Positions 14,101-20,100 of a stretch of DNA of 64,000 nt are shown here, piece by piece; positions within the stretch are counted from its first letter, which is position 1, and the number at the start of each line of letters is the position of its first letter. The stretch lies in NCBI RefSeq assembly GCF_013167455.1, contig NZ_CP038328.1; one strand, given 5' to 3'. Made by a program: the position numbers. Source of the stretch: Escherichia coli O157:H7. GTDB lineage: Bacteria; Pseudomonadota; Gammaproteobacteria; Enterobacterales; Enterobacteriaceae.

Positions 14101-17100
14101 TTACCGCCGCAGCCGTTCCGGCTTCTTCCAGTGGTACGTTATTTTTTCTTTCTCCCGATACAGTTCAACGCGGCGATTGTAGGCCAGCATTTCAAGAACG
14201 CGGTTCCGTATGTTGCGCATATCAACGCCATTAAGTTCTATACCATCACGGCGCATCACTTCCGCTACAACACGCACATAATTTTCAGCGGTCACGCTGT
14301 CCGGCTGTGTGGCCTGTTCGTCATGCTGCTGGCTGATTCCGGCGACGCGGCGGATTAATCCCAGTAGTTCGGCTTCTGTCATTGTGCCCCCATCGCTCTG
14401 ATAGTCTGGTGTCGTCGGGTCCTTCCTGGAATTATGGCCCGTTACGGGGCGGCGACCTCGCGGTTTTTATCTGTTTATGAGAATTTTCCGGCAAAAGTCA
14501 GATCCGATCTTCTTCTCTGTAACAGACTGTTTAACAATGAAAATATTAAAAAAAGAAAGGATCTGACACGAGGCATTTTAGCCAGAAAATGCCATTATCA
14601 GATCCTTTCTCATTTTTGTTCAATAATTGCGCGTCTGTTACTCGCCTTTCTTCTGTAGCAACTTTTCCGGTACGTTTCCGGTTGTTTCTTTCAAGTAATC
14701 AGCCAGTATCTGTGGGAGGTTGTCGGCAACTCTGGCACTGGCATTACAGGCTTTAACCACTTCCCTTTTAAGCCTGTCCAGCATGGCGGGGGTAATCTGT
14801 GGGAAGCTCCTTTGCATAGTAAGCGGGAGGCTGTCCATGATTGATGAAATCTGACTCGCCAGCTTTGAAAGCGCGTACAGGCAAAACTCAGTATCAATCA
14901 CGTCACCGCGATCGCGATCGTTTTTAAGTTCCTGCGCCTCTGCCTGTGCTGTCAGTAATCTGATCCTGACTCGTAAAAGTTCATCATCGTCAATCTCGCC
15001 TTTGTCGTTTATAAGCTGGCTAATTGCATTGTTAACCCTATTTTCTATCACGCTGGCAACATCATAAAACGCCTCACGGCCTTTACGCTCAACGGGAGTT
15101 ACTCCCCACTTGTCGAACGCTGTCGCACTTACACGGCAGCTTTTCGCCATGTTTTTTTTGTTCATCAGATGAGATTTCATTAATACACCAACTTAATTAC
15201 TGCTTCAGGTTGGTGTATTGCTTGCATCTTTCCCTTTTCATTCATAAAGATAGATCAAACAACAAAACCACCACCACCACCCTGAAAAGGCTCATAAATA
15301 GCGAAAATCCGCGAGGTCGCCGCCCCGTAACGGGCCATAATTCCAGGAAGGACCCGTAAAAAAGCCGGATTTCTCCGGCCTTGTCTCAGATGGTTTTCAG
15401 TATGCGATCGATGTCGCCGTCATCGCCCTGGTTTCTGCCATCGTATGCCATGCCAGCTGATACGGCTTGCGGGCTGTGCATGTCCATAAAGTTTTCAAAG
15501 GCTGCGGTAAGTTCCGGCGCAACCTTCGGACGTTCCTGCTCTATGGTCATGCTAAGGATGCTTTTAGCCGTACCAACATCGATACAAGGCACGTTTGCCA
15601 TTGCACGCAACAGCGGCTGATAGTCTTTATGCTCATGAAGCGCCATAATCGCATCAGCGCACGGCTTGTCCTGCTCTTCCAGTTTGTTTAGTTGATATAC
15701 GGCCTCATAGGTTGATAAACCTCTGTCAGCCATTGCCCGCGCTTCGACTTTAAATTTACTCGCCAGCGGTAGCGTCATGATGCTTTCATTCGTTGCCATC
15801 GTTCCCCCTGCTTATCGGGCCAGCGGCTGAACGGATACGCCGGAACCCGCAAAGGCGGCGCATTTTTTCGCATCGGTGTCGACGCTCTCAGGCCAGTTAA
15901 CGGCGGCAATATTGAATATCCCCGTCTTGTAACACTGTGCTGATTTCTGCTTTGACGTGTCCACAGGGTACGAGGTCAGATAAACAGCCTTGCCAGATTC
16001 CTGACCATCCCACGGCTTAAACTCGCCATTGTCTGCCAGCATCAGCGGGGTAAATTCCTGAATAACGCCAGCATCAGCGGCAAAATGTACCAACGTCGTG
16101 GATACCTGCTGACTGCCTGCAAATAACTCAATGTATGGAGTGTCCATAGAATCCCCCCGTTAACCAATTTTGACGGTAACAAATTTGCGAATATCTGCCG
16201 GTACCGGCTGCGGTGCACTGTGTGTCTGCACGTACTCAATCGCCGGATCGCCGTCCTCAATCCAGTTTTTCGGGTAAAACATGTTTTGTGTTGCGCCCGT
16301 TCTTACCGCTTCCTGATCCATTATCGCACCATAGGCCACCAGCCCTTTATTGTTGGTGTTACCCAGGACCAGCAAATCAGGCTCAAGGAAATATTTTTCG
16401 GTACCATCGCTGTCAGTGTATTTGCCGGAATAGACGATAAGGGCCAGATCACCAAGATAGCCTTTAAAGCTCACCACTTCGCCCAGGTTTTTACAGGCCA
16501 GTTCGGCGGCGGATTCTGAACCACGGGAAAGATCGTACAGCTCACGGAATTTTTTAAAGCTGCGTAATGTGCGCCATACCTCAGCGCCCATAATCATGAC
16601 GTTTGCGGGGCAACCAGCCTGATCAGCATAAAGCTCGATGTCATAGATTGGGTCGTGCATGTCTTTATCCTGCTCGGACCATTTTTTACCCTTGGCCTGC
16701 TCTATGATGCAGTTTTCCGGTATTTTCCAGTCGATTTCATAGCGTTCTATGCCTTCGCCCTCAATGATGTTTTTTCCGGTCGTTACCGCATTCACCGCCA
16801 GCCATTCCACGCGTGCCTTAATGGCGTTTATCTGGCGGCGCATGTTGCCAGTAATCAGGCGCATACGGCGATAGGTAGGGTCGTTAAGCTGTGCCGGATC
16901 TTCTCCAGCCATGCGCATGATGGTTTTCGTTGGATCGATTTCGTGCTTTGGCTTCATGTAGCCAGGTTTGATTGTGCTGGTTTCGTACCCTTTATCGCGC
17001 TGAACCTGGCTACCCACCATAGGCGAACAAAACGCCGACATGGTGACTTCTTCAATGTCCAGGGTATCCAGCATGATGTTTTGCGTGCTGAATGTCGCCA

Positions 17101-20100
17101 CGTTCGGGAAAAACAGCGTGGTAAACAGAGGGCTGAATTTAAAATCCGCAATATCCCCGCGATTCAGGTACATGAAAAGCTGGTTAGTGTTAAGTGCCGT
17201 TGCTTTGCCTGCCATTATTCACCCCCATAATTTTTATGCATCCCAAGCGCCGCAAGTAAATAAGAGCGTACAAGTGAACCTATCGACGGCTCCGGCGTCA
17301 TCAGCGGATCCAGTCCAGCCGCAACGCCAGCTTCATAGTTTTTTTTGTGGCGCTGCTTGAGCACCTCCACGATTTCGGGGCTTATGTACACCGAAACACC
17401 GCTTTTTTTCTCTTCAGCCATAGTAAGAAATTCCTCTTCGACTAAAAAAATCATAACTGGATGTTTATCCAGTCCTGATTATAATCAGAATTGCATTTTA
17501 TGCAATGATATTGAGTTATGTTGCAAATTATGAAATGATTATCCCGATCACGAACGCCAGTGCATCCAAAAACCTCATATGCAAAAGCCCGATAAGAACC
17601 CTCTGACCTTATCGGGCTTTTTTTGGGCGCAAAAAAGCCGGATTGCTCCGGCTATGTGTGCTGTGTGCTGGCTCAGTCTCTGATCTCTTTCAGAAATTCT
17701 ATCAATGCATCTATCTGTTCAGGATTTACCGCCAGCATTTCACCGGATAGAGCACATCTCACAAAACCATGCTGATCCTTTTCAATCAGTGCGCCCGTCT
17801 CCAGGAATGCGCGGTAATCATTGATGCTCATCGTCTCCATGTTGTCAGCATGGTATTTATCACGCTGTTTTAATATCTCATCAAATTTCATCGGCATTGT
17901 TTTTTTCCTCTGTTGTGTCTGTTTGTTTCAGATAGTAACTATGCCTGACCGTGACGAAAACCCGGTAATGCGCCATACCGTTTCAACTGGTGCAAAAAAA
18001 GCCGGATTTCTCCGGCTGTTTGATTAGCTGTCCTGGTAATTGCGCCATATTTCATCACCAGCACCATCTATACCCATTTCGGCATAAGTGCGATCGACTG
18101 CCTTTTTCAGGTCTCCGAAATTATCCGGCGGCTCCGGTGCCCTCTGTGCCTTCCTTGAACATTCCAGCCGTCGCATCGTGATGTGATGCCGTTCCTTGTC
18201 TGTCTCCACCAGCTGCATGACTTCACCCCATCGCGCCGCCGCCCTCCGGTAAAAGCCTTTCGCCTCCAGTTCCTCCGCTATGCGGTCATGTACCATCGTC
18301 ACCCCCTCAGAACGAAATATCATCACCGTAAGGGTCATCGCCTCCCGCTGGTGGCTGATTACCCTGTGTGCCTGTGGTTTTGCGTCTGTTCCCGCCTGGA
18401 CGTGCCGCGCGGGCACTGATTACGCTGTCTGCGATAACCTGCCAGCCCTGCCGCGTTTCTCCGTTCTGTCCGGTCCACTGGCTTACCTGCATCGTGCCGG
18501 ATACGCTGGCAACATCGCCTTTTTGATGTTTAGCCAGGAAGCCGGCCTGTTTGCCAAATGCGATGACCGATAACCATAACGTCGCCTGTCCGTCCTGTGC
18601 CTGGCTGCATGGCAAAGATACCGCCATACGCGCCAGCGTCATCGGTGTGCCCTTGCTGGTCTGTTTTACCTGCGGGTCGTCCACCAGCCGCCCGTAAGCG
18701 GCTATCTGTGCCGTCATAATTCCACCTCTCCGGTTTTAACGTTGATGGTTGTTACCTGTTCCGCTTCGGCAATCTCCCGTTCTGTCAGCGTGGCAAAGTT
18801 TGCCGCCGCCGTGGTCATGAATGCGCTTATCAGGTCGGGATGTTCCTTCGCGTATCCTTCCCGCGTGTGGCGGTCTATCGTTCTGATTGCCACCTTTAAG
18901 GTGTGCTCAGTCATGTCTAACGCTTTATATTTTGGCTCTGTTCTGTCTCTGCGTTTTTGGGTCATTTCTCGCAACCTCTCACTTTTTCGCCTCACTTTTT
19001 CAAGCGTCTCACTTCGTCGCAGTTGGGATTTTCGGTTTTTCTATGTGTGTGTTTCATAAGTATTTTTTTACCCCTCACTTTTGAGGATGTATACAGGTCG
19101 AAAAGTGAGGGAGAGCGGGCTAATTTTGGCCCTCTTTCTATCCCCCTCGCTTTTGCTCCTCACTTTTATAGCGGCGCTACATCATCCCCATCGATACGAA
19201 TAACCCCATCTTTTTCCAGCTTGTACAGCCAGCGCCGGAAGTTTTTCATTTCATACCCCAGCTTTTTCATGTCATCACGTAACAGCGGGATCGTGCACTT
19301 GTCGCCGTTCTGTGTGCGTGAACGGATGCACCCCCATAGCGCGGTATGGTTTTCCGTCTTGTTCCCTGCCTCCTCGATGCGCTCCAGTTCAACAGGAGGG
19401 CGCGGATCATCCACCACCACCAGCGACGTGATTAATTCACCGTCAGCGTCGGTAAAAAGCTCCACCACGCGTAAGTCATATGCGGCTTCTTTGAGTTCCT
19501 CCGCGTCCTTCATTTTGGTGCATGAGATAACCAGCGCTTCGCTTCCTGCGTCCTCCCTGCGTATCCGGTATTCAGCATCCAGCGAAGCACGAAATGCACT
19601 GGAACCGCGCGCGCCTTTCGTCTCATCCTTGCCGGAATGGTGAACCACCAGCACCGTGGCCCCTGTGCGTCGTTTCAGTTCGTCACAACCACGGATAAAC
19701 GCCCCCATATCACGGGAATCATTTTCATCATTCCCACCAAAGCAACGCGCCAGCGTATCCAGAATAATCATGCGTACAGGTTTACCCGTTTCCCGCTCCA
19801 CCTGACGGGCAGCGATAACCATTTCATCAACATCAAGCGGGGCAGCCGGAAAGATGGGGCGGTTTACCAGATACAGATTTTTCACCTGCTCATCGTGCAC
19901 AACCTCCCAGGCTTTTACACGACGCGGAACACCTATACCGCCTTCACCAACCACATAGAGAACCGCACCATGTGCAACCCTGCGGCCTCCCCACTGGCGA
20001 CCAGTGGCAACATGGCACGCCCACGATCCGGCAAGGAATGATTTATAGGACCCGCTAGCCCCGTATATGCTGCATAGCGATACCGCCGGAATAATCCCCT

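Follow-up and report, generated by a model that had tools for sequence, protein, structure and literature searches.

The window analysed here is a 64,000-nucleotide stretch of an Escherichia coli O157:H7 genome (contig NZ_CP038328.1), in which phoP and phoQ end at 13500 and an island lies between phoQ and roxA. Its borders are att-like direct repeats (13582-13656 and 24559-24633) with a spacing of 10,977 bp, and both the list of open reading frames (ORFs) and the RefSeq annotation of an identical O157:H7 record place all island genes on the minus strand. Over 11.2 kb the window is 100% identical to O157:H7 chromosomes of many genomes. The island is known as OI-51, CP-933C or Sp7, was described as adjoining phoQ and has been compared with a region of strain CFT073 (PMC3378721). 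The region studied here is the late (capsid and DNA-packaging) module of this element, which measures approximately 11 kb and belongs to the EcCICFT073 family of Gram-negative phage-inducible chromosomal islands (PICIs). Element and satellite family have already been published; the module is intact and conserved. Taken as a whole, the locus is probably best explained as a two-part PICI late module composed of a head operon and a swappable packaging cassette. The minus-strand order is a 68-amino-acid (aa) ORF (orf68), a capsid gene (E'), a decoration gene (D'), a 137-aa ORF (nu3'), a terminator, a cos site, a Nu1-like gene (terS') and a 93-aa ORF (orf93). An earlier reading made from the sequence alone (the sequence-only reading) had pointed out this non-lambda arrangement, with which the ORF list and the RefSeq annotation agree, and its proposal of a head module on a helper-dependent mobile island is supported by the results below. 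It had omitted a second, inverted cos site. The features of the module are:

17583-17657, minus: tandem-terminator region upstream of the head operon
17636-17653, minus: upstream hairpin, GCCGGA-N4-TCCGGC with a T-run (-15.9 kcal/mol, z -3.7)
17583-17621, minus: 15-bp bidirectional hairpin (-21.7 kcal/mol, z -3.9)
17422-17582, minus: promoter/leader region, rich in palindromes
17505-17500 and 17483-17478, minus: candidate promoter as read from the sequence, with -35 TTGCAT, a 16-nt spacer and -10 TATAAT
17491-17505, 17475-17488 (CTGATTATAATCAG) and 17457-17472: dyads
17445-17480, minus: leader hairpin with U7 (-13.4 kcal/mol, z -5.3)
17215-17421, minus: orf68, 68 aa (79 aa if the ATG at 17454 is used)
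16160-17215, minus: E', gpE-family major capsid protein, 351 aa (PHROG 29, E 1.5e-107)
15812-16147, minus: D', gpD-family head decoration protein, 111 aa (PHROG 49)
15386-15799, minus: nu3', 137 aa, homologue of EcCICFT073 c1501
15355-15384, minus: terminator closing the head operon, hairpin with a T-run (-16.9 kcal/mol)
15181-15356, minus: cos1, with a partial cosQ, cosN and an island-specific cosB1, running to the terS' start codon
15314-15325, minus: cosN of cos1, GGGCGGCGACCT
14638-15180, minus: terS', full-length Nu1-type small terminase, 180 aa (PF07471, E 9.5e-22, model positions 35-162 of 164)
14416-14637, plus: cos2, inverted relative to cos1, with cosN at 14447-14458 (+) and cosB2
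14498 (+), 14559 (-) and 14598 (+): R boxes TCAGATCC of cosB2, in the architecture of lambda cosB
14101-14382, minus: orf93, 93 aa, conserved last gene of the module, adjoining cos2 (PHROG 1561, labelled as unknown function)

The affiliation of the element with the Gram-negative PICIs is borne out by its overall organisation. It is a small island with att repeats and an integrase at one end (23308-24558, minus), and it occupies the EcCICFT073 site. Beside int lies a gene for a 62-aa helix-turn-helix regulator (22755-22943, minus), and the annotated genes share one strand; the regulator takes the same position as that of EcCICFT073 and is AlpA-type by position, and the gene at the AlpA position of the Salmonella relative matches PF05930. 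A replication module of its own comprises a RepA-family helicase of 466 aa, a 99-aa DUF4222 protein given in the island annotation and identified as RgdR (PMC3378721), and a single-stranded DNA-binding protein (SSB), all on the minus strand. The SSB gene lies between the helicase and the head block (minus), as do PerC and a 74-aa ORF. The island also contains Icd-like fragments, and a 314-aa ORF of odd composition at 21753-22697 is listed by RefSeq as an Icd-like pseudogene. For Sp7 of the O157 strain Sakai, excision, circularisation and DNase-resistant (packaged) DNA have been reported; a P4 alpha-like replication gene was found broken into fragments, and only the integrase and the regulator were termed P4-like (PMC2669165). 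None of the ten late-region proteins matched a PHROG for Sid, Psu or Delta, as would characterise a P4-like satellite. Head and packaging genes among the island ORFs and annotation are limited to capsid, decoration, nu3-like gene and terS', with no lysis or tail genes.

From their arrangement, orf68, E', D' and nu3' appear to form a self-contained operon with a predicted promoter of its own behind a terminator and a further terminator at its end. The separate terminator-bounded unit postulated in the sequence-only reading was thus recovered as a promoter-like core behind a terminator and a terminator after the 137-aa gene. The stop codon of orf68 overlaps the capsid start (TAATG), and the 68-aa start of orf68 is preferred because a ribosome-binding site is present and RefSeq calls it. 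Lambda has the order nu1-A-W-B-C/nu3-D-E, as against E-D-nu3-like in the island; since all genes are co-oriented, the island order represents a true permutation and not an inversion. E' shares 43% identity with lambda gpE, and D' 36% with lambda gpD. In a comparison with 50,697 phage records the best identity of E' was at most 47%, and the copy in the Salmonella island is 68% identical. A capsid-protein scan of 100,044 species genomes gave 11 pattern matches, none of which was confirmed.

Selection was assessed in five islands (O157, CFT073, W24, ATCC 25922 and CEA601S) by pairwise ratios of nonsynonymous to synonymous substitution rates (dN/dS). Between them, these islands use four integration sites and three types of replication gene; all compared genes have the same length and zero internal stops. 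Pairwise dN/dS was 0.08-0.17 for the capsid gene, 0.03-0.30 for the decoration gene, 0.16-0.63 for the nu3-like gene, 0.12-0.19 for terS' and 0.13-0.34 for orf93, and the two alleles of orf68 differed with a ratio of 0.3-0.44. Of 5426 complete E. coli genomes, 597 have the E'-D'-nu3' block at ≥90% identity, and in 591 it is full-length. An island of Salmonella diarizonae has orf68, capsid and decoration in the same order. After the decoration gene, this island (8727-10025 of its locus) continues with an unrelated 79-aa gene and then with genes of 141 and 146 aa.

These data bear on the view that the module is what is left of a decaying lambdoid prophage head cluster, its gene order being due to random rearrangement. 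The island has indeed been annotated as a highly degraded prophage (PMC3378721, PMC2669165), and most head genes are absent. However, all six genes are intact and of equal length in the five islands, with dN/dS well below 1; the order recurs at different integration sites, beside different replication modules and in another genus, Salmonella; and the module persists full-length in 591 genomes, with no phage capsid protein more than 47% identical. A remnant is therefore already contradicted by the data, and we regard it as extremely improbable. The sequence-only reading had itself named two grounds for doubt, namely inactivating lesions of the capsid gene in related copies and housekeeping homologues of the unknown ORFs: the capsid gene is intact in 5/5 copies compared, and no such homologue was found for any of these ORFs. 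Because the genes are intact, dN/dS is low, the module is widespread, its capsid protein is far from those of phages and its order is kept in Salmonella, we conclude that it represents an old satellite-specific lineage under selection, not debris. We consider the identity of the element, its anatomy, its homologies and its conservation under selection to be established.

The protein encoded by nu3' proved to be capsid-related. It aligned with positions 495-567 of the 583 in PHROG 53, the family of the head maturation protease (E 4.7e-9), and its residues 49-131 were 37% identical (E 3e-10) to residues 416-493 of a 501-aa S49 peptidase from the icd prophage of CFT073, whose head is of the phage-21 type, the same type as that of the native helper of EcCICFT073. 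The sole phage matches in tblastn were genes annotated as Nu3. An exhaustive search of 1.84 billion representatives returned eight relatives, among them a 195-aa Nu3-like protein (P0067) with three repeat copies followed by the ending F-x-x-F-M-x-x-H-S-P. nu3' has one repeat copy (versus about three), the same ending and a private N-terminal part of about 45 aa. Similarity to lambda's own Nu3 was not detected, nor was a Pfam family. Nu3 is the scaffold of lambda and corresponds to the C-terminal reading frame of gpC. Since nu3' is homologous to the C-terminal end of gpC/Nu3 and Nu3 serves lambda as scaffold, we read it as a shortened scaffold-type protein; its homologues suggest a shortened relative of the 21-type Nu3 scaffold.

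Neither the region nor its 68-aa, 93-aa and 137-aa proteins had a match in Pfam, NCBIfam, PADLOC or Rfam. Homologues of orf68 are restricted to Escherichia and Salmonella islands. Its family, PHROG 3255, is labelled as unknown function, and the protein has no Pfam, PADLOC or other defence-system match. The protein had been suspected of being a ribbon-helix-helix regulator acting on the upstream dyads. Its AlphaFold2 model is of moderate confidence (predicted local distance difference test score, pLDDT, 73); the N-terminus is extended, two helices are present, and the PDB search gave no significant fold match. For orf93, no significant Pfam or PADLOC match was obtained, and the helical AlphaFold2 model, of low confidence (pLDDT 64), had no meaningful fold match. 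The structure predictions and fold searches of the 68-aa and 93-aa proteins that the sequence-only reading had called for thus returned no fold match. Of the three unknown ORFs, which it had named as candidates for capsid-size or helper-interference functions, the 137-aa protein is capsid-related, and the 68-aa and 93-aa proteins are without family, defence or fold match.

Upstream of the head operon, the hairpins fold far more stably than shuffled controls. The bidirectional hairpin is invariant in five E. coli islands despite differing upstream genes, and the Salmonella island has a different hairpin in the same place, which argues for a real terminator function of the upstream hairpin. Three near-identical terminators (15355-15384, 17628-17657 and 17992-18021), each consisting of GCCGGA-N4-TCCGGC with a T-run and 80-87% alike over 30 nt, close successive units, namely PerC, the 74-aa ORF and the head operon. 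The leader hairpin with its U-run (17445-17480) is strong in E. coli and Salmonella and absent in a metagenome relative; it may serve in leader termination, as an operator or as a 5' stem of the mRNA. Palindromes and tandem terminators had already been noted here in the sequence-only reading; both are present, and the two noted palindromes (17457-17472 and 17491-17505) occur once each in the window, with about zero expected by chance. A core consisting of a AATCATTTCATAATTTGCAAC box, a TTGC-N7-GCAA dyad over the -35 element and TATAAT within the second dyad is conserved across E. coli, Salmonella and the metagenome relative. The weak -35 element would suit an activator-dependent promoter, and control of the head operon by the helper is possible. 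The promoter region had no match to phage late promoters in the 50,697 phage records, and the helper late activator that the sequence-only reading had considered gained no support. PerC is an unlikely activator of the operon, as the islands of W24 and ATCC 25922 keep the module without PerC.

Expression might instead arise by read-through of an AlpA-activated upstream transcript, the hairpins acting as attenuators only. Unidirectional transcription activated by AlpA has been described for Gram-negative PICIs, and the co-orientation of all island genes fits such an arrangement. Two strong terminators just upstream of the operon speak against it, as does the conservation across genera of a promoter-like core with a perfect -10 element, which the flanking upstream sequence does not share. 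Read-through is hence possible, if on balance unlikely, and we favour the operon's own candidate promoter.

The second part of the module is organised around two cos sites, the cosN sequences of which are both identical to that of lambda. A 76-nt inverted repeat (91%; 14416-14491 / 15281-15356) holds both cosN sites and brackets the Nu1-like gene. At cos1 the inner flank is short: the distance from the nick to the terS' start is 146 bp, and from about 42 bp past cosN onwards the flank resembles neither lambda nor EcCICFT073. In the lambdoid prophages of strains NS-NP030 and R3, the cos that immediately precedes terS shares about 80% identity with the cos2 region. On our reading, cos2 would be a helper-type cos and cos1 the island's own site, presumably read by TerS'.

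TerS' is 36% identical to lambda Nu1, the match reaching the C-terminus. Its residues 72-165 share 60% identity with the 21-type prophage TerS of NS-NP030 and R3, with residues 1-71 remaining unaligned; the N-terminal part of about 70 residues aligns weakly to lambda Nu1 and has no match among solved structures. A comparison with RppA, the packaging-redirecting protein of EcCICFT073, gave a BLASTP E value of 3.4, that is, no similarity that would place TerS' with the Rpp type. In lambda, the C-terminal part of TerS has been reported to bind the large terminase, TerL (PMC6739421). As the C-terminal half is helper-like and the N-terminal half unaligned, TerS' looks like a chimera of a private, DNA-binding N-terminal half and a helper-type C-terminal half compatible with the TerL of the helper.

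Inverted cos arms were found in every island examined. The segment between them measures 657 nt in CFT073 (rppA), 789-797 nt in O157, W24 and ATCC 25922 (terS') and 454 nt in CEA601S. Because the enclosed segment differs completely among related islands, we regard the space between the arms as a swappable cassette. The 454 nt of the CEA601S island (6881-7336 of its locus) are without a terS or rpp frame. Candidate helpers are prophages encoding a gpA-type large terminase, which occur in O157 genomes alongside the identical island. In one such prophage, that of O157:H7 Vac_07.1 (1471-1725 of its locus), the N-terminus of terS is cut by an ISEc8 insertion; the surviving C-terminal fragment of its TerS is 52% identical to TerS'.

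A mechanism can be proposed from these elements. Upon induction of a lambdoid helper with a Nu1/gpA-type terminase, the island would excise and replicate. The private N-terminal half of TerS' would then bind cosB1, and its helper-like C-terminal half would recruit the helper large terminase, which would nick the lambda-identical cosN and package island concatemers; four island copies would amount to 43.9 kb, or about 90% of the lambda genome. The cos2 site might additionally let unmodified helper terminase package the island. The capsid trio, presumably expressed and maintained by selection, most likely adds shell material to heads used by the island, a contribution that would be dispensable with the helpers tested so far. 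The promoter, the contacts that TerS' would make with DNA and TerL, and whatever role the capsid proteins may have are inferred from sequence and homology.

Much of the relevant background comes from EcCICFT073, which is induced by lambdoid helpers via AlpA and in which c1499 is the capsid gene, c1500 is the decoration gene, and two cos sites are functional (PMC6092414). Several observations weigh against the picture drawn above. Deletion of c1499 or c1500 left both transfer by the native helper and interference with lambda unchanged, and the DNA packaged with lambda was phage-sized (PMC6092414), so that a structural role of the capsid trio is unproven and possibly conditional. The deletion and size results therefore weigh against a function in capsid size or interference, at least with those helpers. 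A confounding of the "no phenotype" result by the c1501::tetA marker was considered and rejected, since the primers put tetA right after the c1501 stop codon and leave the gene intact. The constraint on nu3' is weaker than that on the other genes (dN/dS up to 0.63), and its slot is taken by the unrelated 79-aa gene in Salmonella. A consensus scan made no promoter call because the -35 element is weak, and the promoter is a sequence prediction. Finally, transfer of Sp7 to K-12 was not detected (PMC2669165), and the TerS-encoding PICIs of IHE3034 and 18098 transferred poorly in the single published test (Fillol-Salom 2018).

A stronger role for the capsid trio can be envisaged, in which it builds island-specific, possibly smaller shells on the helper portal and the island acts as a partial capsid-former between classical and capsid-forming PICIs. 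Shell, decoration and scaffold-type genes occur together without portal, protease or large terminase, the scaffold protein has one repeat versus three in phage Nu3-like proteins, and purifying selection acts on the capsid gene, which forms a deep lineage confined to satellites. Moreover, nu3' resembles 21-type Nu3 and not lambda Nu3, and the published size test used lambda. On the other side, transfer by the native 21-type helper was kept after deletion of capsid or decoration in EcCICFT073, an island-sized DNA band was not seen for that element, and four copies of an island of this length would suit a lambda head. We therefore judge this role unlikely. Quite unlikely is also its more elaborate version, according to which E', D' and the single-repeat Nu3' would, with a cognate 21-type helper, build the particle shell on the helper portal, perhaps at smaller size, TerS' would free packaging from the helper TerS, and the island would be a semi-autonomous intermediate on the way from classical to capsid-forming PICIs.

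The capsid-type proteins could also act against helper or competing phages, as poison or decoy subunits instead of building blocks. There is a precedent in Ccm of SaPIbov5, a capsid homologue reported to redirect helper assembly (PMC6092414; PMC8569155), and the proteins of the island are related to helper head proteins, from which they have diverged. Yet among the cloned late genes of EcCICFT073 only c1503 (rppA) lowered lambda plating, deletion of capsid or decoration did not relieve interference by EcCICFT073, and no PADLOC defence family was matched. Such an antagonistic function appears improbable, and a contribution of shell material, dispensable with the helpers tested so far, is the role that we prefer.

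Several points follow for the satellite family. The capsid gene travels with the decoration gene and, in E. coli islands, with a scaffold-tail gene, in a conserved operon that is under selection and has its own predicted promoter; this satellite capsid lineage is far from any deposited phage. As the scaffold piece matches 21-type helpers and not lambda, lambda may be the wrong helper for a test of capsid size. The slot between the cos sites is a swappable specificity cassette holding an Rpp or a putatively chimeric full-length TerS, which bears on how Rpp proteins arose, and cos2 as a straight copy of a helper cos would offer a testable answer to the published question of why there are two cos sites. 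To the known element the analysis adds, incrementally, the assignment of the 137-aa protein as a scaffold tail, an apparently chimeric TerS' occupying the Rpp slot, the helper-type cos2, the conserved candidate promoter and evidence that the genes are under selection.

Elsewhere in the window, a block of 30-35% G+C content (33785-40125) lies between the chromosomal pot genes and a prophage and encodes a 1133-aa protein, whose PHROG family is named T3SS (type III secretion system) effector EspN, and a 782-aa protein. The separate lambdoid prophage at 43924-57150 has 56-59% G+C and encodes a tape-measure protein of 1080 aa, a portal of 859 aa, a fused protease-capsid of 645 aa, a large terminase of 553 aa and a small terminase of 187 aa. 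Its head and packaging type differs from the Nu1/gpA/gpE type matched by the island. This window prophage (40-64 kb) was considered as a helper and is unlikely to be one, given its different terminase and portal and its fused protease-capsid type.

Among known systems, capsid-forming PICIs such as EcCIEDL933 are similar to the O157 island in that they, too, are satellites with a major capsid protein and a small terminase of their own. They are reported to encode the complete set needed for forming capsids and for packaging, stealing tails only (10.1101/2022.09.08.507074), whereas no portal, protease, head-tail connector or large terminase is present among the ORFs and annotation of the O157 island. 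A parallel exists with CpmB of SaPI1 and Ccm of SaPIbov5, which are reported to resize the capsids of their helpers and where a satellite encodes a short protein related to a scaffold C-terminus and a capsid homologue (PMC5644958, PMC8569155). Size redirection has not been seen in the EcCICFT073 family, though; the sequences are unrelated, and the helpers are of another type. With lambda and phage 21 the island shares a cosN identical to that of lambda, homologues of Nu1, the Nu3 tail, D and E, and the arrangement of cos, cosB and small terminase at cos1. It differs from these phages by the absence of A, W, B, the protease part of C, FI and FII, by having E-D-nu3 upstream of cos and an extra small gene before E, and by protein identities of 36-47%.

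The closest relative in organisation is EcCICFT073, which occupies the same roxA-phoQ site and has the same overall gene order. The two DNA sequences are 94% identical over 17665-15284, from the promoter region through cos1, and 90% identical over 14491-14089, which covers cos2 and the 93-aa gene, with no similarity between the cos arms. Shared are orf68, capsid (c1499), decoration (c1500), c1501, the terminator, the two inverted cos sites and a homologous 93-aa gene; the replication gene is a primase in EcCICFT073 and a RepA-family helicase in the O157 island. In EcCICFT073 the slot between the arms is filled by rppA, whose 144-aa product is without a TerL-binding tail, and the element needs helper TerS, whereas the O157 slot holds the full-length Nu1 homologue of 180 aa; in addition, the O157 cos2 has a recognisable phage-type cosB, unlike EcCICFT073. 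RppA (c1503) diverts helper TerS to the island cosB (PMC6739421, PMC9026076), and Rpp proteins in general comprise about 144-153 aa with a winged helix-turn-helix and a dimerisation helix, have no TerL-binding tail and form a heterocomplex with helper TerS. According to a later paper, a capsid gene is present in 21 of the 29 Gram-negative PICIs used as reference. TerS was stated to be encoded by the islands of IHE3034 and 18098 (Fillol-Salom 2018); the combination of an apparently chimeric TerS' with a helper-type cos2 was worked out here for the O157 island by sequence alone. The head module recurs in IHE3034 at 95.6% identity, and W24, ATCC 25922 and Nissle 1917 carry the same terS' as the O157 island.

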